A stretch of 64,000 nt of DNA from a candidate division FCPU426 bacterium (GTDB taxonomy: Bacteria; Oederibacteriota; Muellerivitia; Muellerivitales; Muellerivitaceae). The stretch lies in assembly GCA_963796105.1 (NCBI GenBank), contig CAWCKJ010000004.1, positions 640,001 to 704,000 on the forward strand, given 5' to 3'. The notes below the pieces were generated by a model. The model worked only from the letters and a program-made list of their open reading frames with translations, was not told the DNA's origin and ran no database searches. Positions 12,140 through 41,267 of the stretch are shown in pieces. A program made the position numbers and the translations under genes. How positions within the stretch are numbered: the first letter of the stretch is position 1; each line of letters opens with the position of its first letter.

Positions 12140-12346
12140 GGGGGCGGCAATGAACCATCGGTGCGATGATTTCCCCACCCCGGTCGAGCCAATAAATTCA
12201 AAATTTAAAACTCAAAATTCATCATTGTTCTACTACCCCCCCGTGGACAGTTTTTGCTTTATTGACGTTTTGTTTGGGAAAAGGGTTGAATTTTTAAAAT
12301 CACTTTCTAAGATAACGCACCTGCACTTATTTAAAAAGGATCGCTT

Positions 12347-12820
12347 ATGGGCCAAGCTGCCCTCCTCACCATTCACTTTTTGCATGTTTTGTTCGGCTCC
12401 ATTTACTTGGGCGGTATTGTTTATATTTATTTCGAGCTTTGGCCTACCCTTCTCTCCCGTCCCTCGGCCGAGGCGCTGGATTTTTACAGGGCCATCCTGA
12501 AAAAAACCACTATCCTGATGGGCTCCTCATGCGGAATGACTTTTCTGCTGGGGATTACGCTTGGGATCGTCAATCAGCAGGTCAATTCTATCCAATCGTT
12601 GGGCACCCCTTATGGAATCACTTACTTGATCGCCCTCCTCGCTAACCTGGTCTTGTTGATCCAGGGCCCGGGGAGGGGACAGGCCCTTCTTAAAAAAGTT
12701 TGGGCCGAAAACCAATTCGCTCCCGATGCGGCCCTAACCGTGAGGAAAATGTACCGAGTGACCCTAATCGCGGTATGTATCATCATGACCTGCATGGGAC
12801 TGATGATTTTCAACCTCTGA
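12347..12820 (+). CDS. hypothetical 4-TM membrane protein
   Basis: FLHVLFGSIYLGG first helix (CopD/DUF2269-like pattern). Confidence 0.7.
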   Translation: MGQAALLTIHFLHVLFGSIYLGGIVYIYFELWPTLLSRPSAEALDFYRAILKKTTILMGSSCGMTFLLGITLGIVNQQVNSIQSLGTPYGITYLIALLANLVLLIQGPGRGQALLKKVWAENQFAPDAALTVRKMYRVTLIAVCIIMTCMGLMIFNL

Positions 12821-13114
12821 AAACCCTTTTCACGATTTACCCTTTAAATCAGGGGGCGCTTCCTATCCATTTTCCCCTTGTCCAATCCACCTCCCTGCGC
12901 CAAGCCGGGCGGCTGGGTCCCCGCCCTGTAGCGAAGCCTATGCGCATGCTATAGGGACCGCAGTGGACAAACTTATTTTGGCCATGGGATCGAAAGCAAC
13001 AACCAGCCCAAGCCTTTTTCGGGTGCTCCAGGGCCCATAACTTCTATAATAGGCTTTGTCTTCCGCCTTGGGTGAAGGGGAGCCCCGGGGCCATCCCGTC
13101 CAAGCGAGGTCCCC

Positions 13115-14434
13115 ATGCCCGAAGAAAACGTCCAGCGAAAACTTTCCGCCATCATGTTCACGGATATCGTGGGTTACAGCAAAATGATGGGGGAGGACGA
13201 GGCCGGTTCCCTGGATTTCCTCAGGTTCCATAACGCCCTTCTGCAGGGTGAGATCGAGAAAAACGGCGGGCGGGTCATCAAGACCGTGGGCGACGCCTTC
13301 CTGGCCGACTTCAATAGCGCGGTCAACGCTGTGCGCTGCGCGGTTTCCATCCAAAAACATCTTCATGATTACAACCTGGATTTTACCCGCTCCAGCGGGA
13401 AGAACCGGCAGGTGCGCATCGGCATTCACATCGGGGACGTGGTGATGTCGAACAACGACATTTTCGGGGATGGGGTCAATATCGCGGCGCGTCTCCAGCC
13501 CATCGCCGAGCCGGGCGGCATCTGCGTTTCCCAGGACGTTTACAACCACATCAAGAACCAGGTGGAATTTCACGCCACATCCCTTGGCCCCCATGAGCTC
13601 AAGAACATCGCCCAGAAGATCGAGATTTATAAGATCGTCATGGAGGTCATGGGCGGGGCAAAGGACAGGGTCATACCCCATCCCCATGTGGAAGCCAAAA
13701 AGAACATGGGCCTTAAAATGCTCCTCGGCTTGCTGCTGGCCGTGATCATCCTGGCCGCTTCGGCGGGTTTGTTCTGGTATTTTTTCCCGCCCAAACATAC
13801 CGTCTTTAAGACGAGGTACGGATTCAACTCGTTTTTCATGTCCAGGCAATCCGACCAGCAAATCGTATTGTGCTCGAAACCCGGCAACGAATTAAATCGC
13901 AACCCCCAAAATGGCCTGCTCACATTCCATTATTACACCAGCGGCACGGACGGAAGCGGGGTCACCTTTTATCCCATCAACGGGCCTTTTGCCGATGACA
14001 AATACGCCATCGTGGAAGGCTGCGATATGGTTCAACTTCATGGCATGGCCCCGGCGGGCCTGCGGTTCCAGGTCTCGATCAACGAGGCGGGCGTGGGAGC
14101 GCCTGGCGCGGCATCTTATCCGGGGGTAAACGGCGCCGATGGGGAACAATACCAAAGCCCGGTGATCACGGGTTTCGGAAAGTGGAAGGTCTATCAAATC
14201 AAGTTATCCGAGTTCATCCCCAGCGCTGTTTGGGGGAATCAAAACGGCAATAAGGTTTTGGACCTGAAATCCATTGATTCGTTGGGACTGGACATTCCGG
14301 CGAATCAGGGAACCGGGGACTTTAGGATCATGAGCATCGTGTTTGGAAAGTTAAACCCCGGAAATCGCGATAAAATGATTGTCCCCGTCCTGCGAGGGGC
14401 CCCGCCTGGCGGGAATCCGGCCGGCACACGGTAA
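13115..14434 (+). CDS. class III adenylate cyclase with one TM helix and a C-terminal CBM11/CIA30-like domain
   Basis: MFTDIVGYS, KTVGDA, RIGIHIGD and DIFGDGVNIAARL; TM near aa 200-222; WKVYQIKLSEF..LDLKSI. Confidence 0.9.
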   Translation: MPEENVQRKLSAIMFTDIVGYSKMMGEDEAGSLDFLRFHNALLQGEIEKNGGRVIKTVGDAFLADFNSAVNAVRCAVSIQKHLHDYNLDFTRSSGKNRQVRIGIHIGDVVMSNNDIFGDGVNIAARLQPIAEPGGICVSQDVYNHIKNQVEFHATSLGPHELKNIAQKIEIYKIVMEVMGGAKDRVIPHPHVEAKKNMGLKMLLGLLLAVIILAASAGLFWYFFPPKHTVFKTRYGFNSFFMSRQSDQQIVLCSKPGNELNRNPQNGLLTFHYYTSGTDGSGVTFYPINGPFADDKYAIVEGCDMVQLHGMAPAGLRFQVSINEAGVGAPGAASYPGVNGADGEQYQSPVITGFGKWKVYQIKLSEFIPSAVWGNQNGNKVLDLKSIDSLGLDIPANQGTGDFRIMSIVFGKLNPGNRDKMIVPVLRGAPPGGNPAGTR

Positions 14435-14574
14435 AGCCGGCCTTCCAGCTCCAAGTCATAAAAAAGAGGCCAGGTTCCACGCGCCTCAGCGTGGGTCAGC
14501 GCCAATCTATATTTTGACAATCGTCCAATGCGGCCGGCCCCCCGGAACCTGCCGGGCAAAAAAAAGGGTTCGGC

Positions 14575-16680
14575 CTACCTGAGAACGATCACTTTTCTTA
14601 TCAATCTTCCGGACGCTTCCTCGATGATCACGAAATAAACGGCGTTCCCCACGATAACGCCATCATTGTTGGTCCCATCCCACTGGACCCTGTAATTGCC
14701 AACGCCCCTGTATCCGTCCATGACCTTCTTGACTTCCTCCCCAGCGATGTTGAAAACCTTGATTTTGACGCCGCCGGCTTGATCCACCCTCACGTCCATC
14801 CCCAAGGGGCCCTTGTCGGGATTGAAATAGTTGACGTCCAAGTACAACTCGGCATTCGGGGTGTTCGTAGGCAGCGGGGTATTAGTGATGGTGAAGGTGT
14901 CGGTGATGGTTGGCGTTTGGGTCAGCGTGGGTGTGTTTGTGGGAGTCGGGGTGTTTGTGGCTGTGGGCGTCGGGGTGGCGGTGTAGGCGGAGGTCGGGGT
15001 CTCAGTCGCTGTTGAAGTATTGGTCGGGGTGTAAGTGAAGGTATAAGTGTAAGTGGGAGTGTATGACGGGGTGTTCGTATAGGTCATTGTATTCGTGGAT
15101 GTGCTGGTCGCGGTGTTCGTGAGTGTAGGTGAATAGGTATAGGTAAATGAAAAAGTAGGCGTAGCCGTGGGGGTGTCTGACGGCGACGGGGTAAAGGTAG
15201 GCGTCGGGGTTTGGGTTGGGGTATTGCTGGACGTGGCCGTTTTGGTCGGCGTGTTCGTCTGCGTGGGCGTATTGGTCCAGGTGTTCGTAGCGGTGGGTGT
15301 CGATGTATTCGTGACCGTTGGCGTGTAGGAAAGGGTATTAGTAGGCGTATTGGATGGCGTATCGGTCGGTGTGTCCGACCATGTGGGCGTGTCAGATGGA
15401 ATATCAGTCGGTGTGGCGGTTGGCGTGTAGGAAACAGTATCTGTCGGCGTGTTGGATGGGGTATCGGACGGCATTTCCGTCTGAGTGGGTGTATTGGTCC
15501 AGGTGTTCGTAGCGGTGGGTGTCGATGTATTCGTGACCGTTGGCGTGTTGGAAAAAGTATTCGTCGGCGTATTGGAAATCGTGGGTGTCGGCGTCAATGT
15601 CGGTGTATCGGATGGCGTATCGGTCGGCGTGTCCGACCATGTGGGCGTAACCGTAGCCGTGTTGGTCGGCGTCGGGGTGGCCGAAGGGGTGAAGGTTGGC
15701 GTGATGGTCGGTGTAAAAGAGTTTGTGGAGGTAGCGGTAGGCGAAGCGGTAGGGGTAGCCGAAAAAGTCGGTGTTGCCGAACCCGTTGGGGTATTGGTGG
15801 GGGTTCGAGTCGGGGTATAGGTGGGGGTCGGAGTCGGGGTGGGGGTCGGACCGCCGCTCAAAATTTCGACAGCCCAGCCATACCCGGTCGACGACATATT
15901 GTTGGGGTTGAAGCTCTGGCTGATGCTGACGGCTGACGTGGTCCCGGGCGAATAATCGCCGAAAGCAAAGCCTAACGAGTCAGAACCCATCGTGGCCGGG
16001 GTCAGGGGAAATTGACCGGCGCCATTGACCACGGCGTAACTGCCAGGATTCGTGCTTCCCTGCGTCAAAAGCACCTGAAGAATCGTGCTGGTGGAACTCA
16101 ATGGCGTGAAACTAAAGGAAACAGTCGCGGGTGTGCTGTTGGCCGGGCTAGTGACGTAATTCGTGGCGTTGACGCTGGTCGCGCCGATGGGGGACGCGCT
16201 TGCCGCGTTGCTGTAGGTCCACCACTCGTATCTCCAGGAACAGGAACTGTTGCCGCAGGCCAAACCCGTGCTGCCCCCGGCGATGGTCAGCGCGTGGGCG
16301 GACGCGGGGTTCGCGATATAGTAAAGAGACCGGTACGCGGTTTGGCTGGCCGCGTACGTGATGGGGCCGCCCAGGCTTGTCATCGCGGCGCCGTTATAAG
16401 TGATCGTGCCGGGCGTTGTCCCCCAAAAGGAGCCGTCAGCCTCAAGCAAGACGAACAAAACATAACTGCCCCCGGCGGAGGCGCCGAAATTGAGGGCGGA
16501 AACGGTGACACCGAGGCTGGTCAAGGAAGATGAAACCGTCGCGTCGCTGTCATAGCTGGAAACGGCGGCTTTGGCGTTTCCAGCGGAAAAAACCAGGACC
16601 AGGAATAATAAGGCGGCGATTAGTTTTGACCCCATTCGGGCTCTTGGGCTCTTCGCGCGGGGGGATATCGCAAACGTCAA
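14575..16680 (-). CDS. secreted protein with very long Thr/Pro stalk and C-terminal FlgD-Ig-like domain
   Basis: Signal peptide (AKAA); over 300 aa T/P region; C-terminus closely similar to 10450..12009. Confidence 0.8.
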
Positions 16681-16907
16681 TAAAAACTTAGGTAAAAGGG
16701 TTAACTTGAGTAGGACAAACTTTTTCTTCGCTATGATGAGCTCGCAAAATATGTTTTCGGGGTGAGTGAATTAAGAAATGGTAATTACCTGTAATTATAT
16801 CAGATTCCCCCCATCTCGGAGACCGTTGGAAATCGCCTTAAAACAACCCAAATCCGGGATTTCCCCGATGACCTGCCCCGAGTGTCATCGAGGCCCTGCC
16901 ACTCGCT

Positions 16908-16984
16908 GTGCCGATTTACAATAAGATGGTAATAGAAATCGGTACTATGCCAGCCTCACTATTGGGCTTATCGTAGGCTGGTAT
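16908..16984. repeat. tandem 38-bp palindrome pair
   Basis: gtgccgattt..aaatcggtac (16908-16945), t, atgccagcct..aggctggtat (16947-16984). Confidence 0.75.
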
Positions 16985-17078
16985 GCGGTGCGAGGGGGCT
17001 TTCTCTTGTAACATTGCCGCGGTGTAATGAGATCCCCGCCGTGGATAACTTAATAAACTTGCCCAATTTTCTGTTCAT

Positions 17079-17786
17079 TCATTTCTTCCCAGCCAGGTTC
17101 TTCAGGAACTGTTCCATCTCGTGGTTGGCGGCATCCCAAAAGGAATTGAAAATCTGGTGTTGGAAGGAGTCGCAGCCGTTCGCCTGCCAAAGGAGGCTTC
17201 CATCCCTCGTGGAAATAAGGAAAAGCTCGAATGCACCCACCTTGTTGTAACCCCGCGTGAACGTGGCGTCGTCCCGTTCCAGGATGGACTGCCGGCGGAA
17301 GTAATCGATCATCTTTCCATCCATGTTTTCACGGATCTTGACGGGACAGCCGAAAGTCCCGTAATAATCGATGATTCCCACCAAGGCATAGGGCTTTCCA
17401 CCGGAGAGCGCGGAAAGTCTTTCAGCGCTGAAGGGATACTTGCCCGGTTGATCGGGGCGGAACACATGAAGAAGTAATGCGCCCTGGTCGGCCGCGGCGG
17501 CGGGAACGGCTTCCACCGTGAGGTCCCATTTTTTCGCGTTTTTCAACAGGGCGGCTTGGACCTCCGAAACGGCTTTGTCCGCGGAGGGTATTTCGGTCAA
17601 CGGGGCCTGAAGAAAGGTTTTTTTACTTCCCGTCTGCCAAATTTTACTGGATCCGTAAAAACTGCCCAAATACGCGATATCGCCCGCCGGTACGGTGAAC
17701 CCGGGCGCCGGGCTGTAAATTTCATTCGGCCAAGCGTTCGCGAAAGATAAAAAAAAGAAGATTAAAGATAAAAAAGACAGCTTCAT
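17079..17786 (-). CDS. exported hypothetical protein
   Basis: ATG 17786 after GGAGG; signal peptide MKLSFLSLIFFFLSFANA. Confidence 0.65.
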   Translation of the reverse strand: MKLSFLSLIFFFLSFANAWPNEIYSPAPGFTVPAGDIAYLGSFYGSSKIWQTGSKKTFLQAPLTEIPSADKAVSEVQAALLKNAKKWDLTVEAVPAAAADQGALLLHVFRPDQPGKYPFSAERLSALSGGKPYALVGIIDYYGTFGCPVKIRENMDGKMIDYFRRQSILERDDATFTRGYNKVGAFELFLISTRDGSLLWQANGCDSFQHQIFNSFWDAANHEMEQFLKNLAGKK

Positions 17787-18129
17787 AAAGGCCTCCATTT
17801 GGTAAATAAGCGGTTTATCATTTCCTCTCTTTGATATTCCAATTTGGAATATCAAAGTTTTACTCTTTTCTCAGTTAGATACCATTCTAATCTGCCTGTC
17901 CACGATCCCCGCGCCAAGCCGACCCGTCTCCGACGTGTGTCCCGAAGCTTGAGTGTAGGGATAAGATTGAGCTCAGGGACAAGTCTTGACGTAGGGAGAG
18001 GAGCTTAAATCTTTATTTGTGGACAAGCCAAACAATTCAAAACCTGGCCCCGAGTCACATCGAATGGTTTAAAATTCAGAATTGTTGTACTTCCCCTCGT
18101 CGTAGTGGACAACTTAAATCGCTGTTTTT

Positions 18130-19167
18130 TTATCCTTTGGCCGAAGGCAATCGGTAACTAGCGGATTTCGTGCTTCCGGCCTTAGCCACCAACCCCGCCT
18201 TCACCAGCGGTTTCATTAATTTGCTGAAATTGGACCGCGATATTTTGAGCGCAATGGCCATTTCCCCGCCCGGCATGGAAGCGACAGCCCCTAAAGTCCT
18301 CAAAATTTGTTCTTGTTGGCGGTTCAACAATATTCGTTTTGCCCGCGTGCCGGCCCGAAGAACCTGAATTCTCCGTTGTGTTTTTCGGAGGGTTTCCACC
18401 ACGCCTTCCGCTACGTATTCCAGCCAGGAAGTCAGATTGTCCGCCTCCTTCCTGACTTTTTGAATTTGCCAGTAATACCTCGGCCGGTCTGTTTCAAAAA
18501 ACTCGTCCAACGCGAAGATGTGGTGCGTATCGAAACCTTTTCGGTAGAGAACCCAGGATTCCAAAGCCCGGGCCAAGCGCCCGTTTCCATCCATCACGGG
18601 ATGGATGGACACCAATCGGTGGTGGACAACCGCGGCCACAACGAGGACATGTTCCTTCCGTGCCTGGGTGGATCCGATCCAAGCCAATAGGCCCCTTGTC
18701 AGAATGGGAGCGGCCTCCGGGGGCGGCGGGCGGTAAATCACTTCCCGTCCCTTGAAAACCGCGTTAGGCGCCTTTTTATAAACACCCGCATCCGCCGCGG
18801 GAATGGTGCCCGCCGTTAACAAACCGTGCATTTTGAGAAGGTCTTTTTCGGCGACAGCCCTTCGCGGGCTCTTTTGCCAAATCCACCTCAAGGTTGCGAG
18901 ATAGTTCAAGACTTCGCGTTTAGCCTTAGCCTCAATTTCCAGGTCCTTTCCCTCGGCGAGGGCCCGCACTTCCGGCAGGGTCAAGGGATTTCCTTCTATC
19001 CGGGTTGAATAATGAGCCAATCGGGCGATAGTGTCCCGTTGGATCTCGGCAATCCAGGAAACGTCCACGGATTGCTGTTGAATCCAAGTCCTCAATTCCG
19101 CCGCCAAGGTTAGTCGTCGGACGAAATCAGGGGATCTCTCAAATTTCGGATGATAGGTAAGAATCAT
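18130..19167 (-). CDS. Fic family protein with C-terminal HTH
   Basis: HPVMDGNGRLAR Fic motif; STRIEGN autoinhibitory motif. Confidence 0.92.
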   Translation of the reverse strand: MILTYHPKFERSPDFVRRLTLAAELRTWIQQQSVDVSWIAEIQRDTIARLAHYSTRIEGNPLTLPEVRALAEGKDLEIEAKAKREVLNYLATLRWIWQKSPRRAVAEKDLLKMHGLLTAGTIPAADAGVYKKAPNAVFKGREVIYRPPPPEAAPILTRGLLAWIGSTQARKEHVLVVAAVVHHRLVSIHPVMDGNGRLARALESWVLYRKGFDTHHIFALDEFFETDRPRYYWQIQKVRKEADNLTSWLEYVAEGVVETLRKTQRRIQVLRAGTRAKRILLNRQQEQILRTLGAVASMPGGEMAIALKISRSNFSKLMKPLVKAGLVAKAGSTKSASYRLPSAKG

Positions 19168-19240: not shown

Positions 19241-19269
19241 TTATCCACGAAGGCCCCCGTCGTGGACAG
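19241..19269. repeat. TGTCCACGAC-family palindromic boundary site
   Basis: ttatccacga-aggcccccg-tcgtggacag; representative of more than 12 related sites in the window. Confidence 0.65.
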
Positions 19270-19275: not shown

Positions 19276-19572
19276 TTAAGTTTTTTTAGTCCGTTTTGCA
19301 AAATAAGCTTTAACGGCGGTTTCCGGACTTTCTACGGGTGGCAATCCTAAGACGGTCGCGAAATTCGCTTTCTTCCTTGCCTCAAAATACCATCCATAGG
19401 CCTGTTTTGCTGTCGGATGGTCTTTTAGTTCAAAGACTTCCACCAATCCTTCCCAAGCGGTCCTGTTTTGGTAAACCTCTTTTACCCATGCCGACTTAAG
19501 ATGCTTTGCCTCGCATGAAAATTTCCGCTTAATTGCGGATGTAAGGGCCTCAAGGTATTCCGTGTTATCCAT
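19276..19572 (-). CDS. conserved hypothetical protein
   Basis: 98-aa ORF with WEGLVEVF.L..HP.A..AYGW pattern. Confidence 0.7.
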   Translation of the reverse strand: MDNTEYLEALTSAIKRKFSCEAKHLKSAWVKEVYQNRTAWEGLVEVFELKDHPTAKQAYGWYFEARKKANFATVLGLPPVESPETAVKAYFAKRTKKT

Positions 19573-19691
19573 TTATCTTTCTGACACCTGTCTTTCGATT
19601 AATTTCCCACTCCACGTCGGCTCCCCGTCGCGAGTAAGCCAACTCATTCAAAATTTAAAATTCAGAATTGTTGTACATCCCTCCTCGCGGG

Positions 19692-22163
19692 TTATTTCTC
19701 TTCCGGCTCGTCCAAACCCTCAAGTTTCTTTTTCGAGGTTTTATTCCCATGGGCTACGGCTTTGGTAAACCACCGCGAGGCTTCCTTCTTGTCCTGGGGG
19801 ACACCCAGGCCTTCCTCGTAAAGTTTGCCGATGACCAATTCGGCCCTGCCTAAACCTTTTTCATCCGCCTTCAGGAACCACTTCATGGCCTCCTGGTAAT
19901 CCTGGGGTACGCCATGGCCGTCCCGGTACATAATCCCGATATTCACCATGGCATTGGCGTGACCTTGGCCCGCGGATTTTTGGTACCACTTCATGGCTTC
20001 CTGGTAATCCTGGGTGACGCCCTGGCCTTTCTCATAAAGTTTGCCGATGACCAATTCAGCCCTGCCGAACCCTTTTTCATCCGCCTTCAGGTACCACTTC
20101 ATGGCCCCCTTGTAATCCTGGGGTACGCCATGGCCGTCCCGGTACATGATCCCGATATTCACCATGGCATTGGCGTGACCTTGGCCCGCGGATTTTTGGT
20201 ACCACTTCATGGCTTCCTGGTAATCCTGGGTGACGCCCTTTCCATACTCGTACAGGCAGCCAATATTGTTTAGACCGGAGGAATTCCCATGATCGGCGGC
20301 CTTTTGGTACCACTTCTTGGCTTCCCCGTAATCTTGGGGAACGCCTCTGCCATGCTCATAGAGGCAGCCAATATTACACTCAGCGATGTTATCCCCTTGT
20401 TCAGCGGCCTTCTGGTACCACTTTATGGCTTCTTGGTAATCTTGGGTGACTCCACGGCCATCGTCATATAGAACACCCATATCGCGTTCCGCAATTGCGT
20501 TTCCTTGGTCAGCGGATTTTCGATACCATTTCAGGGCTTCTTGAATATCTTGTGAAACACCTTTCCCAGTCTCGTAGCTATACCCAATACAGCATTCAGC
20601 GTCCGAGTTCCCCTTTTCCGCGGCTTTATGGAACCATTTCATGGCTTCCTGGTAATCCTGGGAAACGCCCCTTCCATTGGAATATAAATCGCCAATATCA
20701 TAATCGGCATCAGCGATTCCTTGTGCGGCGGCCTTCTGGTACCACTTCATGGCTTCTTGGTAATCTTTTGGAATGCTCCATCCCTTTTCATAAAAAACGC
20801 CGATATTGCATTCAGCCCCCCCATTACCTTTCTCAGCGGCTTTCTGGTACCATTTCATCGCTTCCTGGTAATCTTGGCTGACGCCCTCGCTTTTCACGTA
20901 CATAAGACCTATATGAAATTCAGCCTCGGCTGACCCATGGGCGGCGGCCTGTTGACACCACTTCATGGCTTCCTTGAAATCTTGGGTTACGCCATTACCG
21001 TTTTCATACAACCCACCGATATTGTTTTCAGCATCAGCGATCCCTTGTGCAACGGCCTTTTGGTACCACTTCATGGCTTCCTGGTAATCTTTTGGAATGC
21101 CCAATCCCTTTTCATAAAAAACACCGATATTGTTTTCAGCCCTCCCATTACCTTTCTCGGCGGCCTTCTGGTACCACTTCATGGCTTCCTGGTAATCCTG
21201 GGTTACGCCAAACCCTTGGGAATAAAGACTGCCAATCATAAATTCCCCGCCCGAATCCCCTTGCGAGGCGGCCTTTTGGTACCACTTCATGGCTACCTGG
21301 TAATCCTTTTTTACCCCAGTGCCCTTTTCATAATGCCAGCCTAAATTGACCTCGGCTCTTGCCAATCCGGAATCTTCCCGGTAGAGGACCCCGAAATTCC
21401 CGCCAAAAGGATAAGAATGATCATTCCCTCGGTTAGCGGCGTCCTTAAACCATTTCATGGCTTCCTGGTAATCCTGGGTAACACCCATTCCATTCTCAAA
21501 TAAAAAACCAATGTGCATTTGGGCGATCGGTTCATCTCGTTGCGCGGCTTTTCGATACCATGTCATGGCCTCTTGGTAATCCTGCGCGACTCCCAGTCCA
21601 TGCTCGTAGAGACTGCCTATATTGTCCTGAGCGATTGCGAATCCCTGCTCCGCGGCTTTTTGATACCAATTCATGGCTTCTTGGTAATTACGGGTAACGC
21701 CAAATCCTCTGGAATAAAGAAATCCTAATTCGTCTTGGGCTATCGCATTTCCTTTTTCAGCCGCTTTTCGGTACCAATTTAATGCTTCCTTGTAATCCTG
21801 GGTAACACCCCGGCCTTTTGTACAAAAAATACCGACATTACATTCTGCGGATACGTCCCCCTGCATTGCCGCTTTTTGGAACCATTTAAAGGCTTCCTGG
21901 TAATCCTGGGTCACCCCCATACCTTTCGAATATAGCCAGGCAAGTTTGTTTTGGGCTTTTACATTTCCCAGATCAGCGGCTTTTCGGAACCACTCTTGGG
22001 CTTGGCCGTAATCTTTTGCCTTAAGGGCTTCGTCCCCTTTGTTTAAATCCACAAAATCCTCGGGATCAGGGTCAACTCCAGCCCGCAACGCGGGTTGGTT
22101 GTATAAGAAAATTCCAATCGCCAGGATTAACATACAGGGTCTAACAGCGAATATATTTTTCAT
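19692..22163 (-). CDS. Sel1-like repeat protein (about 20 repeats), exported
   Basis: Repeated 36-aa A...IG.LY..G.GV.QDYQEAMKWYQKAA..G units; signal peptide. Confidence 0.95.
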   Translation of the reverse strand: MKNIFAVRPCMLILAIGIFLYNQPALRAGVDPDPEDFVDLNKGDEALKAKDYGQAQEWFRKAADLGNVKAQNKLAWLYSKGMGVTQDYQEAFKWFQKAAMQGDVSAECNVGIFCTKGRGVTQDYKEALNWYRKAAEKGNAIAQDELGFLYSRGFGVTRNYQEAMNWYQKAAEQGFAIAQDNIGSLYEHGLGVAQDYQEAMTWYRKAAQRDEPIAQMHIGFLFENGMGVTQDYQEAMKWFKDAANRGNDHSYPFGGNFGVLYREDSGLARAEVNLGWHYEKGTGVKKDYQVAMKWYQKAASQGDSGGEFMIGSLYSQGFGVTQDYQEAMKWYQKAAEKGNGRAENNIGVFYEKGLGIPKDYQEAMKWYQKAVAQGIADAENNIGGLYENGNGVTQDFKEAMKWCQQAAAHGSAEAEFHIGLMYVKSEGVSQDYQEAMKWYQKAAEKGNGGAECNIGVFYEKGWSIPKDYQEAMKWYQKAAAQGIADADYDIGDLYSNGRGVSQDYQEAMKWFHKAAEKGNSDAECCIGYSYETGKGVSQDIQEALKWYRKSADQGNAIAERDMGVLYDDGRGVTQDYQEAIKWYQKAAEQGDNIAECNIGCLYEHGRGVPQDYGEAKKWYQKAADHGNSSGLNNIGCLYEYGKGVTQDYQEAMKWYQKSAGQGHANAMVNIGIMYRDGHGVPQDYKGAMKWYLKADEKGFGRAELVIGKLYEKGQGVTQDYQEAMKWYQKSAGQGHANAMVNIGIMYRDGHGVPQDYQEAMKWFLKADEKGLGRAELVIGKLYEEGLGVPQDKKEASRWFTKAVAHGNKTSKKKLEGLDEPEEK

Positions 22164-22376
22164 CGCTTAATACCTTTCTTCATTTACTCCTAAATTAACG
22201 TCCCCTCAGGGTTCCCGGATTGGACACGCTAATCAATTCAAAATTTAACAATCAAAACCCGTCCTGAACATGCCGAAGGATTGAGCTTTTGTATAATCCT
22301 TCATTCATAATTTGAAATTGTATTTGAACTTCCCTCCCCTGAATCGCAGCCACAAGCCGCGGTTCACTCTTTGGGT

Positions 22377-22482
22377 GTGCCAATTCACCTTAAAGCAGGT
22401 GATGGAATTGGTACTATACCGAACTTTCATTGAAAGCTTTAATGAGGTTCGGCATGTGCCGGTTCAATAATGGAACCGGCCC
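22377..22482. repeat. three tandem palindromes of the GTRCC/ATRCC family
   Basis: 22377-22414, 22416-22455 and 22456-22482, followed directly by ccccatcgtggaca. Confidence 0.75.
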
Positions 22483-22498
22483 CCATCGTGGACATGGT

Positions 22499-22864
22499 TT
22501 AGCGGGCCTTTAAAACCTTGCGTTGATCGAAAGGGTTGAAGCCGAAAGGCTTGCAAATCTTTAGGATGCTTCCGAACTTCGGGTCTCTATTCTTGGCGAG
22601 TACCCGATAGACACTCTCCCGGGGCATACCCGATTGTTTCGACAACCATCCCACCCCGCCATGGGCTTCCGCAACGTCCCGAAGGGCAAGCTGGAATACG
22701 GATCCGTTGCCGTCGTCTAAGCTTCGATCGTAGGCTTCACGCAAATATTCCCGGGCTTCTTGTGGATCGCTTAGTTTTGAAAGAAGGTAATCTTTAAAAT
22801 CCCCTTCCGCTTGGTATTTCTTTTTCTTAATGGCCGTATTTTTCACGATTCCCCCCTTATTCAT
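22499..22864 (-). CDS. addiction module antidote protein (HigA-like HTH)
   Basis: ALRDVAEAHGG..LS..SGMPRESVYRVL...DPKF. Confidence 0.88.
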   Translation of the reverse strand: MNKGGIVKNTAIKKKKYQAEGDFKDYLLSKLSDPQEAREYLREAYDRSLDDGNGSVFQLALRDVAEAHGGVGWLSKQSGMPRESVYRVLAKNRDPKFGSILKICKPFGFNPFDQRKVLKAR

Positions 22865-23186
22865 TTCTCGCTTTGTGGTCTTTCAAGTATTTACGTGCGG
22901 TCGCGATATCCCTGTCTTGACCCCTTTTTGTTCCTCCGCTCAATAGCAAGACGATGAAACCCCTGACCCAGGTGTAATAAACCCTATAGCCTGGCCCCAT
23001 ATTGATCTTGATTTCGTGAAGACCACCGCCTTTGTTCTCGCAATTACTATAGTTACCTTCCCTTACGCGGCCGATGTAGGTGAGAACAGTGGCACGAGGT
23101 CCCCGGTCCAACGAATCCAACCATTCACGAACAGGGTATTTGCCGTCCTTCGTCAGATAATCCTTCATACCTTGAGGTTTATCCAT
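22857..23186 (-). CDS. RelE/ParE-superfamily addiction module toxin (HigB-like, toxin-first order)
   Basis: GLHEIKINMGPGYRVYY..LLLSGGTKRGQDRDI. Confidence 0.9.
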   Translation of the reverse strand: MDKPQGMKDYLTKDGKYPVREWLDSLDRGPRATVLTYIGRVREGNYSNCENKGGGLHEIKINMGPGYRVYYTWVRGFIVLLLSGGTKRGQDRDIATARKYLKDHKARNE

Positions 23187-23347
23187 GCCTTAAATGTAAC
23201 ACTTGTGTTACATCTTTTCAATAGTTTATTGTTTCCTTCGTTTCTCCGCCGCGGACAACCACGATAACCTTTCGTTCTTATAATGGTTTAAAATTGCGGA
23301 CATCATTCTTTAAATCTTTCCAAACCAATCCGTCTGAAGTTGCGGGA

Positions 23348-34842: not shown

Positions 34843-34948
34843 ATTTAACCGGGTACAACTTTTCACCACAGAGTTTCACCACAGGGACACAGAGACACAG
34901 AGAAAGACATTTTCCTGGGTACTGACAAAATCAATTTTCGCCATGGAT

Positions 34949-35025
34949 GTGCCAATCTTCCATAAAACTTATAAGGAGATTGGTACGATACCAGCCCCCC
35001 TATTGGACTTATGGAAGGCTGGCAT
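34949..35025. repeat. tandem 38-bp palindrome pair
   Basis: gtgccaatct..agattggtac (34949-34986), g, ataccagcc..ggctggcat (34988-35025). Confidence 0.75.
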
Positions 35026-35040
35026 GCATGGGATGCATGG

Positions 35041-35166
35041 GATTTAAAGCGCATTTTGATCATGATCTGAAACCCTTTTGAATCAATATCAACATCCCCT
35101 GCTTTCGATTCATCCAGCAAGCCTGAAAAAAGCTAAAATAAGGCCAATTCAAAAAGGATATTTGGC
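35041..35166 (+). repeat. 126-bp direct repeat, copy 1
   Basis: Colinear with 37868-37993. Confidence 0.85.
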
Positions 35167-35192
35167 CGGTTCGAGTACAGCCTGGGGAGCCA
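35165..35192 (+). other. 3' fragment of a tRNA (Asn-like); putative att scar
   Basis: GCCGG-TTCGAGT-ACAGC-CTGGGGA-G-CCA: T arm, acceptor strand, G discriminator, CCA; no 5' half upstream. Confidence 0.6.
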
Positions 35193-35511
35193 TTTTAGAA
35201 CACCCAGTACCTCGGAAGCCTCAAGAGGTAACGCTGGGGTAACGCTCAAAGGGTCGATCCTGACATGGGATCAGGCCCTTTTGCATTCTTTATATGAACT
35301 ATCGCGGACAAGGTTCAACTTTTCTAACCTTATTTATAAGACCGTCACACTTTCGGATCAGCGTTTACAAGGTAAGAGCATTTAAAAAACCACGCCCTGA
35401 AAATCTATTGAAAATGTATTTCCGCGTCAAAATTAAGGAAAACAAGCGGGATCAAGTGAAAGCCGCAGTTTGAATATTTTATCGAACGTTGCCCCTTTTC
35501 GAGTTCCGACT

Positions 35512-37572
35512 TTATTTTTGTAACACCTTTTCCGGGACGGGCCAGGGAATCAAGTTTTCATTCTTGAATACCTGGGTCAATAACTTCCCGAAAAAGATGG
35601 CGCCGTTGGGATCCAAATGGCCGGGGCCGGTCGTGGGATAAAAGGAAAGATCCAGGGCATTCAGGTAGGGGCCAAGGTCAAAATAAGGGACATTGTACTT
35701 CTGGGCCACTTCCTTATAAAAATCTGGTTGATAGTAATCAGCGGACACTGCGTTTATGTAGCCAAAGAGAATTAATAGCCTCACGGGTTTGCCGCTGGAT
35801 GTTCTCATGTTCGAAAGCTTGCGATTGAGCAATTCCCAGGGGTACCCCCAAAACTCCAGGCTCATCTCGCGCGCTTTCGGATCGGAATTGATGTCGTTTA
35901 CCGAAAATTCAAAATTATTTCCGTTAATCTTCACATATTTATGCTCTTTGCAATATTCATAGAATCTCCGGGGCATACCATCCGGGATCCTCTCCTGGGG
36001 AGGCTTTAAAATATATTCCATATCCGGGTTAGAAGTTAAAACGCCGTTAGCGTGGGGAATGCCGTCGGGGGTCAAATTATAACGGTAATAATAACAATAG
36101 GCCGGCAAGTCAATCTGCGGGTTGAAGATGACCACCAGATCGACATCGAGTTTTTTGACTTCGTCGGGCACTTCAATGGTAGGCCAAAAGAGAAGGTCCC
36201 CATGGCGGCCAAAACTTAAAAACTCATAATTCATGGGATTATCATCTAGAGCGGCCTGGAAATTCAGTTCATGTTCCACTTGGGGAGCGATAGCCAAGTT
36301 CTCCGGGTATTGCTTGCCTGTGACCACGGGGTGGGTGTCGGTGGGAAGAAGAAAATCGTCGGTGTCCGTTGTCCCGCAGTTCCCGCATAACAATATCCGA
36401 TAGGTGTTTTTGGGCTTTTCGGCCGGGTATTCAGCGCCATTTAATCTTACGCTGTTATGGCCCATATTCCAAAACAGGTCCCGAATCGAAACGATAACGT
36501 TCACATTAGGAATGGTAAAAAAGAACTTTCGTTTACCTGAGGGATCAGGGACAAAACCCACCCAGGGGCTTATAGGCTGGATCGATTCATAAGGATATTT
36601 ATCCGGGGGTATAAAGTCACCCCATGCATTATTGAATTTTACCACTCCGTTGCTCGAGCCGTACTGCGAGTAACGCTTGTCTAAAATAAACCGCTCGGCC
36701 GGATACCCATCCTTTTTCAACAGGCCATAAAGGATTTGGTCGCTCGAGCAAAGTGAAATCACCTTATCCGCCGGGTTCCCCGCCGGCTGCATATTCGTCA
36801 CCGCGTTATTCTTCCAGTCCAACGAGAAAACACTTTGCAAATCCCTGTCGGACACGTAGATCGTGTTTTCCTGGATCCATAGGGCCGACGGATGGGGAAG
36901 TTGAACATTATCTTTCAGGATCGCCGTTATTTGACCGGTCCCCAAATTCAACGCATTCAAAACACCCGCGTCTGGCTGGGTAAACAGGATCGAATTGGCC
37001 GTGGGAAGGTAGACCATATCCTTGATCCCAATCAACAAGACCGGCGGCTTGACGTCAGGGGAAGGCATGGAGTTCGGTTTTGGGGAATCGGACCCATCCA
37101 GCTGGATAGGTCCGCCCCGATAGGTCGTCACCGTCCCCGCTTTTAGGTTCACAAAACGAAGACTTTGGCTCAAAAAATCGTTGACCGCCAAATAATCGCC
37201 CGGAAGATAAAGGACCCCTCGGGGTTCGTGGAATAGGGCCAGAGTCAATGGACCGTCCAAATTCCCGGGCGCGTCCTGGCCAGCAACGGTGCCAACCTCA
37301 TTGTTTTGGTCAAGGTGGATAATGCGGATTCGGTTATTGAGGGAATCGGCGACGAAAAGGCGGGTCCCATCATCGCTCACCGTCAAACCCAGGGGCTGGT
37401 TAAATAGGGCAGTGTTAAAACTTCCATCCCTATAACCGGCGTCGTATTGACTTCCCGCAACCACGGCAAAGGGGGAATACAAGGGACGAATCGTCCCCGC
37501 CGCTGGAACGGCCAGTAAGCTCAAGAGCGTTATTAAAAATACCGTCATAAGTGAAACAAGATACCGATTCAT
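35512..37572 (-). CDS. exported NHL/beta-propeller protein with C-terminal SGNH-like domain
   Basis: AG..DG..ALFNQPLGL..LFVADSLNNRIR; RILLCGNC and GHLDPNG. Confidence 0.7.
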   Translation of the reverse strand: MNRYLVSLMTVFLITLLSLLAVPAAGTIRPLYSPFAVVAGSQYDAGYRDGSFNTALFNQPLGLTVSDDGTRLFVADSLNNRIRIIHLDQNNEVGTVAGQDAPGNLDGPLTLALFHEPRGVLYLPGDYLAVNDFLSQSLRFVNLKAGTVTTYRGGPIQLDGSDSPKPNSMPSPDVKPPVLLIGIKDMVYLPTANSILFTQPDAGVLNALNLGTGQITAILKDNVQLPHPSALWIQENTIYVSDRDLQSVFSLDWKNNAVTNMQPAGNPADKVISLCSSDQILYGLLKKDGYPAERFILDKRYSQYGSSNGVVKFNNAWGDFIPPDKYPYESIQPISPWVGFVPDPSGKRKFFFTIPNVNVIVSIRDLFWNMGHNSVRLNGAEYPAEKPKNTYRILLCGNCGTTDTDDFLLPTDTHPVVTGKQYPENLAIAPQVEHELNFQAALDDNPMNYEFLSFGRHGDLLFWPTIEVPDEVKKLDVDLVVIFNPQIDLPAYCYYYRYNLTPDGIPHANGVLTSNPDMEYILKPPQERIPDGMPRRFYEYCKEHKYVKINGNNFEFSVNDINSDPKAREMSLEFWGYPWELLNRKLSNMRTSSGKPVRLLILFGYINAVSADYYQPDFYKEVAQKYNVPYFDLGPYLNALDLSFYPTTGPGHLDPNGAIFFGKLLTQVFKNENLIPWPVPEKVLQK

Positions 37573-37867
37573 ACGCGCCTCCTAATATATATTGGGCCAA
37601 AATAGGAAAAGGCGGGCTTAGGTACAAAACCCTCGCACTTTTCCTACCCTATAGACGGGAAAAGGCCGATTTATTTCAAATTTTTTTTAAATAGCCAAAA
37701 ACCCTTTTAATGAAGGGGTATTGGGGGGTTCTTGAGGGCCCTTTAACTGTGCCTCTGTCCCACATCCCCATAAATCCATAAAAGAATTTAGCTGTGCCTC
37801 TGAGTCCCTGTGGTGAATATTAAGGTTTTACGGGTTTTAGGCAAAAAATTCGCGCTGGCATTCAGGT

Positions 37868-37993
37868 GATTAAAAGCGAACTTTAATCATGATCTGGAAC
37901 CTTTTTGAATCAATGGCATCATCCGGCGCTTTCGATTTATCCAGCAAGCATGAAAAAAGCTAAAATAAGGCCAATTCAAAAAGGATGTTTGGC
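37868..37993 (+). repeat. 126-bp direct repeat, copy 2
   Basis: Colinear with 35041-35166. Confidence 0.85.
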
Positions 37994-38044
37994 TAATTTG
38001 ACCTAACTAGGGGAGTCTTAATTTAAATGCTGAAGGAAAATTAA

Positions 38045-38392
38045 ATGACGGATGAAGAGTATTTGCGGATTCTGAAGAAAAAAATGAATTTTAGGGGTAT
38101 AAGAGTTTTAATTGTTTTTTTGCTCTATTTACCCCTAATGAGAGGCACTGTTTATTTATCGAATTTAATGGGGTTTAAAAACAATAACTTTTTTCCAGCC
38201 GTAGCAATCGCATATATGATTTTTTGGCTTTACTGTATTTTATCTTACAAATTCATGAAGTGCCCTAAATGCGAAAATTATTACTATTGGGGCATTTATC
38301 GAAAGCCTATAAGCCAAATTTTCAATCTCAAACTTTTAATGGGTCGAAAGTGCTCTTCCTGTGGATTTGAATTAAAGAAATCTAAAAGTTGA
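38045..38392 (+). CDS. small membrane protein with CxxC..CxxC zinc ribbon
   Basis: Two TM helices; CPKC and CSSC; AT-rich. Confidence 0.7.
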   Translation: MTDEEYLRILKKKMNFRGIRVLIVFLLYLPLMRGTVYLSNLMGFKNNNFFPAVAIAYMIFWLYCILSYKFMKCPKCENYYYWGIYRKPISQIFNLKLLMGRKCSSCGFELKKSKS

Positions 38393-38535
38393 CCTTTTCG
38401 GCATAAATCCGAAGGTTCGAAAATGGATCGACAAGCTCAACAGATACTCGTCATGAATGTGGAGGAAGGAAGTCAATTCTCAATTTTGAATGTTAAATTT
38501 TGAATTAGTAGGCTTGTCCACGATGGGGAGGCCAT

Positions 38536-38985
38536 TTGAAAAGGGATACTGAAAATTCAGTTAAACGGCTTGATTTAATCTGGTATTCCTTCAGTTTTGT
38601 TTTTTTGGCAATTGTTACCGGCTTTTTTAAGTTTTCCGCGCTCAGTCATTTGCTTTTTACCCCCTATATTTTTTTGATGGGATTTTTTTCATTTACGTTC
38701 GGAGTTTTAAAAGTTGTTTTTTTCAGAAGCGGGAAATTCCTTCAATTAACCACGTCAGTGAAAATCAGGGGTTGGTTCGCCTTCCTTGCCTCAATGACCG
38801 CCGCCTTTTGGTGTCTATTCAGTTTTAATTTTCCTTGGTTTTATCGTTTGGCCTATTTTCTGTTCTGTTCATTCTTCGGCTTCCTTAACGGCCTAAGCCT
38901 ATATAAGGGTGTGAGCCTTGCCTTTTTTCATTGGGTTGACCAAAAGTACGGAGAATCCATCCGGAGGTTAATATTAAGAAAATAA
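38536..38985 (+). CDS. hypothetical membrane protein
   Basis: Phe-rich, about 4 TM; TTG start after GGAGG. Confidence 0.6.
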   Translation: MKRDTENSVKRLDLIWYSFSFVFLAIVTGFFKFSALSHLLFTPYIFLMGFFSFTFGVLKVVFFRSGKFLQLTTSVKIRGWFAFLASMTAAFWCLFSFNFPWFYRLAYFLFCSFFGFLNGLSLYKGVSLAFFHWVDQKYGESIRRLILRK

Positions 38986-39160
38986 TGCTAATTCCCTTGT
39001 TCACGACTGGGAGATCCTCGTTCCACAACGAGTATCAGTGGGATTGGACAGGGAGTAACCCCTGATTCAGCCCCGAATCGATGGAACTTTCACCCCCTTT
39101 GTTTCGTCCTATAATTGTTCCAGCGCTTTGTGATCTTGTTTTCAAGAAAGAGGTAAAGCT

Positions 39161-39976
39161 ATGAAACCAACCCCTGGTTTTCCGGTTCTGTTAAAAACGG
39201 CGTTGACCTTAATAGTTGTCTTTTTATTCAGCGGATGCGCGCAACAGCCCCTGCCGCCCCTCTTCAGCCTTTACGGCTACCAGCGCCTCGCCGTCATTCC
39301 CTTTGACAACAATACGCAGGACCCGGCCTTGGCCACCGCACTGCAGGATGAATTGACCAGTGAGATCGTGAGCCTAAACGCCCTTCCCGTGATCGAGGCG
39401 GGCCAGGTGGCGGCCTACCTGAAGTCCATCCCCGCAAAAGCTTCCGACGTACTGACGGACCAGGGATTGCGCCAAAATATCGTCCAACATTTCAAATGCG
39501 ACATCCTATTAGTGGGGTCGGCGGAGGGATACAACGAGTTCCTCAAGGATGAATCGCCTAATAGGTCGGGTTCAGGGTGGGGCTTTTACACGGATCGCAA
39601 GGTCGTCGTCACTAACAGCGCCAAGCTGATGGACCCTGCCAGCGGCAGTCTGCTATGGTTCCGGAACAAGAACTGGGGCGCAAGTTGGCACAATACCTGG
39701 AATCCCCTTCCCGTTCCGGAAACCGTGTTCCTTCCGGGCCTGCTAGGGCAGTTTGTCGATTTGGTTAATTTGGTGAAATACCGGCTGGACCAAAAAGTGG
39801 ATGTTGAGCCTCCCTTTGCCGACGAAACCTATGGTGGCGGCCTGATCTATCCCCAAAGCACCGCATTTACCCGGCTTCGCCAGAAGGCCATTGTGTCCGC
39901 GGTGGGTTCCATGGTGGATGACTTTCAGGGCCATTACAACTGGACGCCAGGGTTAAGGACAAACAACGGCCAATAA
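39161..39976 (+). CDS. lipoprotein (CsgG/DUF799-like fold)
   Basis: FSGC lipobox; RLAVIPFDNNT..DILLVG..AKLMD..GSLLW. Confidence 0.7.
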   Translation: MKPTPGFPVLLKTALTLIVVFLFSGCAQQPLPPLFSLYGYQRLAVIPFDNNTQDPALATALQDELTSEIVSLNALPVIEAGQVAAYLKSIPAKASDVLTDQGLRQNIVQHFKCDILLVGSAEGYNEFLKDESPNRSGSGWGFYTDRKVVVTNSAKLMDPASGSLLWFRNKNWGASWHNTWNPLPVPETVFLPGLLGQFVDLVNLVKYRLDQKVDVEPPFADETYGGGLIYPQSTAFTRLRQKAIVSAVGSMVDDFQGHYNWTPGLRTNNGQ

Positions 39977-40203
39977 GGCCGGAAGTAAAAAATCCGCTAA
40001 TTATCAATTTCCTTCGGTTAAATAATGAAAAGCAATGGTTTTGAATTGTCCACGACGGGGAGGGTTGTACAACAATTATGAATTTTGAATTAATAGACTT
40101 GTCCACGACGGTGAGGTGGAAAGAACAAATTTTTGGTTGATATTTGTATCCTTCCTTGCCAAAAGGTATATACTTTAGGTATATACCTTTTAGGAGTTGA
40201 AAA

Positions 40204-40443
40204 ATGACCAAAGTCCTGTCACTTAAAATAAAAGGCGAGATTTTCGAGGATGTGGAATCCATAACCAAAATCCTTCAAATGCCCCGGAACGCCTATATCA
40301 ACGAGGCGTTGAATTTTTACAATGAGTTCAACCGCCGAAAAGGGCTCAGGAAAAAACTGCTGAAGGAATCCCTGCTCACACGCAAGAACTCCATGGACGT
40401 CCTGAGTGAGATGGAAAAGCTCGAGGAAGCCACCCTCGAATGA
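40204..40443 (+). CDS. putative RHH antitoxin
   Basis: LSLKI..PRNAYINEAL; overlaps the toxin start. Confidence 0.8.
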   Translation: MTKVLSLKIKGEIFEDVESITKILQMPRNAYINEALNFYNEFNRRKGLRKKLLKESLLTRKNSMDVLSEMEKLEEATLE

Positions 40444-40850
40444 AGATCAGGAAATTTAATATTTACCTGGCCGATCTAAGCCCGCGTTTCGGCACAGAGC
40501 CGGGAAAAACAAGGCCGGTCGTCGTTCTCCAAACCAACCTTTTAAATGACGCTCAACACCCCAGCACCATTGTTTGTCCTATCACCACTAATGTTATCCG
40601 TGGGGCTGAAATACTTCGGGTGCGCCTTTCCAAAAAGGGAGTGGGTCTCCCTGGGCCGAGGCCACGAGCCGAAGCCCGAGGTTTGGGTGTGCCGGTTCTT
40701 ACAGGAACCGGCCTTAAAAAAGATTCCGATGTATTGGTCGATCAAATACGCGCTATTGATAACCGCCGGTTCGTAAAACAGTTGGGTGAATTAAACCCGA
40801 TGGATAAGGCAAAGTTGATTGAAAACCTTAAGATTATCTTATTCGAATAG
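40440..40850 (+). CDS. PemK/MazF family toxin with ~22-aa internal insertion
   Basis: ADLSPRFGTEPGKTRPVVV..CPITT..DQIRAID. Confidence 0.9.
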   Translation: MKIRKFNIYLADLSPRFGTEPGKTRPVVVLQTNLLNDAQHPSTIVCPITTNVIRGAEILRVRLSKKGVGLPGPRPRAEARGLGVPVLTGTGLKKDSDVLVDQIRAIDNRRFVKQLGELNPMDKAKLIENLKIILFE

Positions 40851-40888
40851 TCGAAAAAATCGATTCTCTTTCCCTCGGATCTGGCGCT

Positions 40889-41149
40889 TTGGTGATTGGG
40901 GTTATATCTGGGGTTTTAGCTCTTTTGTTTTCTTTTATTAAGAGAACACGTATTAAATGGCTACTCGTATTATTAGCCCCTTTTATTCTGACTGAATTCA
41001 TTTACTGGACACCTGTTTGGTTTGCCCACCAACCTTCGGGGGAATATTCATCATGGGAGGGTTTGTTTATTGTGCCCTGGTATGGGGTAGGTGCTTTTGC
41101 GTCTGCTTTGGTTTGTTACTTGGTTGAAAAATTGAAAAATAATAACTAA
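40889..41149 (+). CDS. small membrane protein
   Basis: Three hydrophobic helices; AT-rich; start uncertain. Confidence 0.55.
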   Translation: MVIGVISGVLALLFSFIKRTRIKWLLVLLAPFILTEFIYWTPVWFAHQPSGEYSSWEGLFIVPWYGVGAFASALVCYLVEKLKNNN

Positions 41150-41267
41150 GCGATGAAGTGGATAAAACTATTTACCCCAAAGGTTTAAAATTGACGTTAG
41201 AGGTTGTTCCTTATGGGGACCCGTCGTGGACAGTTAACTGGTAACCGAATTGATGTGTTGGTGATTT

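Follow-up and report, generated by a model that had tools for sequence, protein, structure and literature searches.

A palindromic joint between gene cassettes in a family of Oederibacteriota and a short serine recombinase as its likely catalyst

In a 64,000-nucleotide stretch of DNA from a candidate division FCPU426 bacterium of the family Muellerivitaceae (contig CAWCKJ010000004.1 of assembly GCA_963796105.1, positions 640,001 to 704,000; hereafter the window), a 30-bp palindrome recurs between toxin-antitoxin pairs, a Fic gene, a Sel1-repeat gene, and small hydrophobic open reading frames (ORFs). The arrays that it delimits are almost certainly a chromosomal gene-cassette system. The palindrome is likely to be the joint at which cassettes change neighbours, with a short serine recombinase as the probable catalyst at its central GA; if the cassette system is taken as given, the assignment of this enzyme is likely.

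Results

Geometry and distribution of the site

The consensus of 292 sites from nine genomes, TTGTCCACGACGGG-GA-CCCGTCGTGGACAA, is a 14+2+14 palindrome, the arms of which are complementary up to an asymmetric central GA, with positions 12-14 (GGG) pairing with positions 17-19 (CCC). Among 335 sites, the GA was present in 312 and the 6-bp core GGGACC was conserved in 258. An earlier reading of the window from its letters alone (the sequence-only reading) had described one conserved and one variable arm, which is true of the copies in the window; the consensus of the family is the full palindrome, and the variability reflects erosion in the window, the copies of which rank among the more eroded ones in the genome.

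A scan of the genome and its relatives with a position weight matrix, which that reading had proposed, found the site across the family and far above chance. In the 4.98-Mb genome that contains the window (G000; the other genomes are numbered likewise, with C for contigs and L for loci), 66 matches reached at least 20 bits, against 0 in the reversed genome. Six matches of a different repeat type were removed from the pooled site set before the matrix was rebuilt with the relatives, and the rebuilt matrix gave 50 strong sites in G000, in 20 clusters. A second palindromic repeat type, TGGTCCCC...GGGGACCT, at C4:1488314-1490607 and C10:164766 of G000, scores on the site matrix and has different arms; it was excluded from the site counts. 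In the window, eight matches (at seven places) scored at least 15 bits, whereas 30 shuffles averaged 0.13 such matches and never gave more than 1; the matrix used had been trained on the whole genome with the window included. A search for an 18-base pattern, allowing at most one mismatch, was positive for 26 of the 30 other family members and for the single genome from the same order, and for none of the 67 genomes from elsewhere in the phylum. An exact match to the site was absent from viral contigs.

Only six of the 335 sites fell inside long ORFs, as against 64% of random places, and a co-oriented stop codon preceded 265 of them (median gap 20 nt), as against 7% of 300 random places. Neighbouring sites within 4 kb were co-oriented in 233 of 245 cases, with a median spacing of 828 nt. 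An intergenic palindrome that soon follows stop codons might also be a transcription-factor operator or a terminator. This explanation is hardly credible, because the swapping of flanks at the palindrome centre, described below, largely refutes it; furthermore, polarity tracks the 2-bp asymmetry, the cargo is unrelated, and the three sites inspected in full at 40.0-41.2 kb of the window, as well as those at 38.5 and 39.0 kb, were not among terminator-like matches.

Exchange of neighbours at the site

The sites bound cassettes of one or two genes, which turn up again in almost unchanged form beside other neighbours, in some cases in another genus. Two arrays of G002 share a 1275-nt cassette without a single difference, and G002 and G022, which belong to different genera, share an 858-nt unit at 99.2% identity; the neighbours differ in both instances. 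Fifty-six site pairs, seven of which are intron insertions, shared one flank, and none shared both. In a stricter set, the pairs of which are not independent of each other, the 23 pairs that shared the upstream flank differed at positions 12-16 in 0, 0, 1, 3, and 0 pairs, at positions 17-19 in 6, 5, and 6 pairs, and at positions 20-30 in 8-16 pairs; the 14 pairs that shared the downstream flank had right-arm variants in common and differed in their left arms (eight rows of this set with both flanks shared are overlaps of adjacent sites). The proposal of a chromosomal gene-cassette system, with joints that are distinct from attC and also from the host dif, was borne out by the change of neighbours at the site, together with the scarcity of sites within long ORFs. 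When half-sites were picked by one arm alone (n = 89), GA came next in 46 and TC in nine, and CCC followed the GA in just 17 of the 46; to judge by this fall in conservation after the GA, partners may have to match at no more than two bases.

The arms did not covary, with 54 shared non-consensus pairs in the array form and 51 in the circle form against a null of 49 +/- 5 (229 cassettes), which argues for protein-bound double-stranded half-sites over a hairpin. A site acting as a single-stranded hairpin, similar to attC or to REP and served by an HUH or IntI-like enzyme, is improbable in our view. The consensus folds at -15.4 kcal/mol as DNA, and group II introns insert in the site in the manner of IIC-attC introns, which insert in attC sites (PMC3001079); on the other side, five of six 30-nt copies in the window fold no better than shuffles, and the best IntI score (TIGR02249) in G000, the genome searched with this model, was 67.2 against a cut-off of 265. 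An Rfam search of the window gave no match.

Covariation between the two ends of a cassette was also rejected, the ends being no more alike than random pairs. This result also bears on a reading in which non-autonomous DDE transposons that duplicate a 2-bp GA target would have the arms as their terminal inverted repeats. The inverted arms at cassette ends, the GA on both sides, and the abundance of IS1595-type elements in G000 would speak for it. We regard this as very improbable, considering that head-to-tail units with one common GA would require exact insertion at an earlier end, that the ends of the IS1595 copy in the window differ from the site (no IS database was searched), and that arrays have no recurrent transposase family.

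A site marks the end of an ATP-synthase-type operon in two species, at L012:12832 (G002) and L110:4230 (G018), with 200 identical bases upstream and different cassettes downstream, so multi-gene operons may also move as cassettes. In G000, one 315-aa gene lies between two sites at C3:300419-301396, between apparent panB and panC genes (named by eye); the apparent panB-panC interval of G001 holds different DNA without a site. For the idea that genes might be captured by fusion of arms to a Shine-Dalgarno GGAGG, the count was 3 of 11 against 2 of 55. The window backbone had no long syntenic counterpart in G001.

Insertions and gene-less units at the site

Group II introns occupy sites at three insertion positions (G000 C4:35647 and 39555; L011:9031; L014:8544; C4:832440; L094:3013; L110:15096). 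Four cases, two in G000 and two in G002, lie after site position 20, where both junctions rebuild the site, and two lie after position 27, where only the 5' junction was seen; another intron lies within the enzyme-side site of G018. The assignment is based on Rfam matches for the G002 and G018 copies and on a motif match for the G000 copies, of which the two after position 20 are short and seemingly ORF-less. The repeated right flank at C4:35647 and 39555, which had been considered as a cassette junction, was rejected as such and is a group II intron.

Hairpins of approximately 25 nt stand in place of the CCC after the GA at 38997-39051 of the window and at L096:10212, L097:9293 and 6840, L100:8561, and L104:7877; they are possibly REP-like invaders. 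A displaced right arm was found within 115 nt in 9 of the 46 GA half-sites, against 1.2% by chance. Gene-less, AT-rich mini-cassettes of 53-130 bp are present in the window at 40062-40114, 38455-38513, 22228-22330, 19638-19700, 18040-18096, and 12170-12234, and eroded units related to the first of these also occur at C6:189339-189435 of G000. A promoter role of the mini-cassettes received no support from a promoter scan of 37.5-42.8 kb, in which one match was found against 7.7 in shuffles.

The candidate enzyme

When all ORFs near arrays (20 loci and the G000 clusters) were clustered, no recombinase family recurred, and the link to a candidate enzyme came from a Resolvase search, the first cases being genes that end just before a site in G001 and G002. 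The candidate is a serine recombinase of 274-283 aa with Resolvase (PF00239) and Recombinase (PF07508) domains and an intact YVRVSS motif; the ORFs stop at aa 274-283, with no zinc ribbon (PF13408) and no coiled coil. A structure model of moderate confidence (pLDDT 72, pTM 0.49) confirms the domains only, and the top fold matches are serine integrases. A homologue search returned 19 protein clusters of 73-100% identity, all of 275-283 aa, after which identity dropped to 61% or less. Ten short ORFs formed one clade (support 100/100), and one prematurely stopped, unrelated long gene fell outside it. The dN/dS ratio of the short clade was 0.04-0.16 where dS was unsaturated, which indicates purifying selection.

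The enzyme gene ends beside a site in 10 of 11 intact copies, with L133 and L306, which are one locus, counted once. Eight copies have a full convergent site 8-36 nt past the stop codon. Of the remaining three, one has a right half-site behind an inserted intron, one lies on a contig that breaks off within the site, and one has a site in the opposite polarity 110 nt away. In addition, 3' remnants of the enzyme gene adjoin sites in G019 (two), G072 (three), G076 (one), and G000, in which 11 codons (KVPGKHFQIR-stop) remain beside a site on C6. For LI integrase, the contact area of the recombinase domain has been put at 13 bp (PMC3783163), in agreement with the conserved arm of the site.

A full-length serine recombinase, such as the 510-aa relative at C6:129.5-131.0 kb of G000 or an unseen one, might instead act in trans, with the short gene as a passenger. 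Long relatives from the same family and order do group next to the short clade (support 90/92; 54-57% identity), and G000 carries only long ones. This alternative is nevertheless unlikely: none of 128 full-length relatives had a site in its own locus, most site-rich genomes also lack long ones, and it is the short clade that is under purifying selection and nearly always adjoins a site.

Several copies of the enzyme gene are carried on larger elements. The enzyme gene forms one end of a 37-kb element in G072 (C8), which carries TraG P-loop and ArdC genes, and of a 7-kb RadC/ArdC unit in G075 (C17); both are flanked by sites in direct orientation. The G002 enzyme gene has chromosomal neighbours and lacks a second site upstream, and a far-end site was not found at the G018 enzyme locus, so not every copy is on a bounded element. 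Two related conjugation-type elements of G000 (C14:3892-79029 and C5:7000-25657) end at cassette sites. The first of these is 97-99.9% identical over long stretches to an element of G001 and represents a recent transfer between species; the G001 element ends in the enzyme gene, and the G000 match stops at C14:3892, approximately 1.4 kb short of the gene, with other DNA beyond. In a single case, the left-arm variant at C14:79000 repeats, in inverted form, the right arm next to the enzyme gene of G001.

Tyrosine recombinases and a dif-like site

The sequence-only reading had proposed an 11+8+11 core of the tyrosine-recombinase type. This layout was not supported, as the palindrome runs to the central GA, no IntI reached the cut-off, and the enzyme linked to the site is a serine recombinase. 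The comparison with the host dif that it had suggested revealed a cassette site different from a single-copy dif-like sequence beside a Xer-like gene. This gene (G000 C3:368879-369841) scores below the NCBIfam cut-offs and is conserved in 13 of the 14 loci fetched, and just upstream of it is an AT-rich 11+6+11 palindrome, ATAA-N6-TTAT (C3:369919-369946, L291), that is single-copy in G000 with up to four mismatches allowed. Gene and palindrome also occur in the orthologous loci L292-L304 (the family and one genome of the same order), and, with two mismatches allowed, 12 of 24 further family genomes contain the palindrome. We infer from the sequence that it is the host dif, and gene and palindrome together are a candidate single-recombinase dif system, comparable to the XerS/difSL and XerH/difH modules, in which a xer gene is likewise linked to a dif-type site (PMC2731167). 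A search with the canonical dif pattern gave nothing convincing, and the strongest XerC/D-like matches of the other families of the phylum were for the most part absent from this one.

A tyrosine recombinase, such as the single Xer of the host, might act on an 11+6+11 or 11+8+11 core of the cassette site, as at pdif modules. The 28 conserved bases have the length of dif, the GGGACC core is conserved as stated above, and the Xer-like gene is present in all 13 genomes with aligned loci, a wider spread than that of the serine enzyme. We still consider this explanation quite unlikely, given that the Xer-like gene has its own palindrome, which is unlike the cassette site, that no cassette site of at least 12 bits was found in the 14 Xer-like loci, and that partners often differ at positions 17-19, directly after the GA. 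At least five RIT-like trios of tyrosine recombinase genes are present in G000 (C1, C4:40.6-43.1 kb, C14, C15, and C16) among 36 phage-integrase-family matches. One trio adjoins an array (C4:29.5-39.6 kb) and no other does; these trios and a XerC/D-like tandem pair in G000 were set aside as cassette enzymes because they did not recur at arrays.

The arrays of the window

Two arrays were delimited in the window, at approximately 8.5-23.3 kb on the minus strand and at 38.5-41.2 kb on the plus strand, and the 15 kb between them hold a single weak arm match of 11.4 bits. Their cargo includes five toxin-antitoxin pairs, the Fic and Sel1 proteins, small hydrophobic ORFs, and gene-less mini-units. 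All of the positions listed by the sequence-only reading carry the letters described, and two of them, 17897 and 18019, score below 11 bits as arms. The four 30-bp copies (23229-23258, 40046-40075, 40099-40128, and 41204-41233) and the 29-bp copy at 19241-19269, which is a site with a one-base deletion, are as reported there. The distances from stop codon to site, given as about 4-35 nt, measured 30, 17, 6, 3, 11, and 34 nt for the genes at 17079, 18130, 19276, 22499, 38536, and 41268, respectively. Two copies (22198-22227 and 19608-19637) and two right halves (9656 and 12878) had been overlooked. No recombinase was said to be encoded in the window, and none was found among 57 scanned ORFs, the sole mobility gene being a transposase of the IS1595 type; the IS1595-family element (7493-8478) has at least 27 near-identical full-length copies elsewhere in G000.

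The plus-strand array begins with a site that has an intact left arm, the GA, and a degenerate right arm (38514-38543), followed by a gene for a hydrophobic 149-aa protein of no family (38536-38985). Its homologue in an array of G022 is 88% identical, and homology stops exactly after the GA of the next site (39012). That site (38997-39051) is broken after the GA by a short hairpin, with the right arm shifted to 39041-39051, similar to L097:9293 of G001. A gene for a 271-aa protein of no family (39161-39976), a site with a perfect left arm and a variant right arm (40046-40075), and the 53-bp mini-cassette (40062-40114) precede the site at 40099-40128, which heads a cassette of an antitoxin and a PemK/MazF toxin (40204-40850). 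Homologues of this cassette are present in arrays of G001, G002, G018, G022, and G023, with a site following in all five and an intact site in front in four; the downstream site is lost in the window. After a small hydrophobic ORF (40889-41149), the array closes with the best full site of the window (41204-41233), which has a variant left arm, the GA, and a near-consensus right arm. This last site has plus polarity, and a VapC (PIN) and AbrB/MazE-type pair on the minus strand (41268-41908) converges on it. A FitA/FitB-like pair on the plus strand (41994-42703) is 87% identical to one in G001 that lies between two sites, which are not recognisable here.

The minus-strand array is headed by the degenerate site at 23229-23258, followed by a cassette of a RelE/ParE-family toxin and an HI1420-type antidote (22499-23186), a left-arm half-site 3 nt past the antidote stop (22466-22495), and a site with an AA centre (22198-22227). 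The 823-aa Sel1-repeat gene (19692-22163) is the next cargo. A degenerate copy reported at its stop codon exists and is the right part of a gene-less mini-unit. Beyond the degenerate site at 19608-19637 are a 98-aa ORF of no family (19276-19572), the 29-bp site, a SoFic-like Fic gene (18130-19167), a degenerate site followed by a mini-unit (18083-18112), a 258-aa ORF of no family (17079-17855), and a half-site consisting of the left arm and GA (17019-17048). A split degenerate site (12878-12970; left arm at 12941-12970, GA and right arm at 12878-12907) and a degenerate site with a mini-unit (12221-12250) come next, and the last cassette is an RHH and PemK pair with a remnant of GA and right arm at 9656-9685 (9656-10241 overall), which is a site-bounded cassette in G001 and G023. 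Two Thr/Pro-rich FlgD-Ig proteins on opposite strands (10450-12009 and 14575-16680) have a 130-bp segment in common, and an adenylate/guanylate cyclase gene (13115-14434) lies between them, inside the minus-strand array.

Discussion

In the mechanism that we propose, each cassette would consist of a right arm, one or more genes, and a left arm, with adjacent cassettes having one GA in common. A dimer of the short serine recombinase would bind two arms of approximately 13 bp in double-stranded DNA and cut both strands at the GA, after which two sites would synapse and subunit rotation would swap their arms. Direct repeats would give rise to excised circles, which could insert again wherever there is another site or a pseudo-site with a GA, and all cassettes would be held in one polarity by the asymmetry of the GA. 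In the absence of a coiled coil, a single class of site would replace attP and attB, and the reactions would be reversible. The enzyme gene itself, convergent, often stands at the right-arm end of ArdC- or conjugation-type elements of 7-75 kb bounded by the same sites; such elements would import the enzyme, and chromosomal arrays would freeze and erode once it was lost, as the window apparently did. The site itself, its polarity, the exchange of neighbours, the linkage of gene and site, and the selection on the gene are the observations from which we infer catalysis, circles, action in trans, and the loss of directionality.

Several points weigh against this view. Judged by the conserved GGGACC, the geometry alone is also compatible with 11+6+11, and the switch in homology is placed no finer than positions 12-16, as compared with the exact 2-bp crossover at the GA that we assume. 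Comparisons of empty and filled sites at three loci with G001 gave no clean case because of divergence and other rearrangements. The linkage of gene and site could arise with the enzyme gene as a mere passenger cassette. The main weakness of the assignment is that the search of 30 family genomes recovered an intact gene from only five; with this query, there was no match in the site-rich genomes G006, G011, G016, G022, G023, and G073 and no intact gene in G000. Most of the site-rich genomes without a match are fragmented, but G022 consists of approximately 20 contigs. On the other side, half of CALINs are likewise reported from genomes without IntI (PMC4889954). Moreover, LI integrase without its coiled coil has been described as promiscuous, with site selectivity lost, and as dimerising more than 100-fold more weakly (PMC5499577), and it gave no in vivo integration with any pair of sites (PMC3783163); a short enzyme in nature would thus have to make up for these losses.

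The system behaves like an integron array, yet it fits neither the integrons nor the pdif modules nor the canonical serine integrases. As in integrons and CALINs (PMC4889954), co-oriented arrays consist of one- or two-gene cassettes with a site after each, exchange leaves chimeric sites, the cargo is toxin-antitoxin pairs and genes of unknown function, and arrays without an enzyme occur; site-targeting group II introns are a further likeness (PMC3001079). Unlike in integrons, no IntI reached the cut-off in G000, the site is a fixed 30-bp palindrome without covariation of its arms, most window copies of which do not fold, the linked enzyme is a serine recombinase that is convergent at the tail of the array, and there are many arrays per chromosome. 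No attI or Pc was seen at array heads, and no gene family recurs there.

Pairs of pdif sites are usually inverted, whereas the cassette sites are in direct orientation. The cassette site is also GC-rich and lacks the ATAA-N6-TTAT core of Xer/dif systems. The likeness to Xer/dif, to pdif modules, and to XerS/difSL and XerH/difH (PMC2731167 for the latter two) lies in dyad sites of 28-30 bp that bound small modules and in the toxin-antitoxin cargo.

Large serine integrases (LI/A118, Bxb1, phiC31, and SPbeta; PMC3783163, PMC5499577, and PMC11722253) resemble the candidate in their catalytic and recombinase domains, the YVRVSS motif, the central asymmetric dinucleotide, and the position of the gene at the end of an element. 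The differences are that the candidate has neither zinc ribbon nor coiled coil, that its half-sites are 14 bp instead of approximately 25 bp, that one class of site is present in dozens of copies, and that it apparently moves other cassettes besides its own element. The Ccr proteins of SCC elements, to which there were weak NCBIfam matches, were grouped with the large serine integrases as a close system. Tn4451/TnpX and Tn5397/TndX combine a serine recombinase with a GA crossover dinucleotide and circular intermediates. Unlike the short clade, their full-length enzymes move one element and are not known from cassette arrays. No description of a system of this kind turned up in searches of the open-access literature (PMC and bioRxiv; titles and the starts of abstracts).

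Taken together, and with somewhat less assurance than the assignment of the enzyme itself, we consider it fairly probable that the integron was invented independently here: a large serine integrase minus its zinc-ribbon and coiled-coil half would have become a reversible, single-site recombinase that travels on giant cassettes resembling integrative and conjugative elements and shuffles chromosomal cassette libraries in trans throughout the family, with site-targeting group II introns of its own. If so, the 278-aa enzyme (L020:5828-6664) and its 30-bp site would be a compact tool for engineering. They would also put to a test in nature the model that serine integrases owe their directionality to the coiled coil, as laboratory deletions are weak and the short clade is under selection. 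The window itself contributes the eroded state after loss of the enzyme, a separate host dif-like site, arms without covariation, and introns that target the site. To our knowledge, the known systems for the capture of gene cassettes, integrons and dif modules, all run on tyrosine recombinases. If the serine-recombinase system is real, convergent evolution would have built cassette arrays out of unrelated parts, and integron-centred tools would overlook a whole class of libraries of accessory genes.

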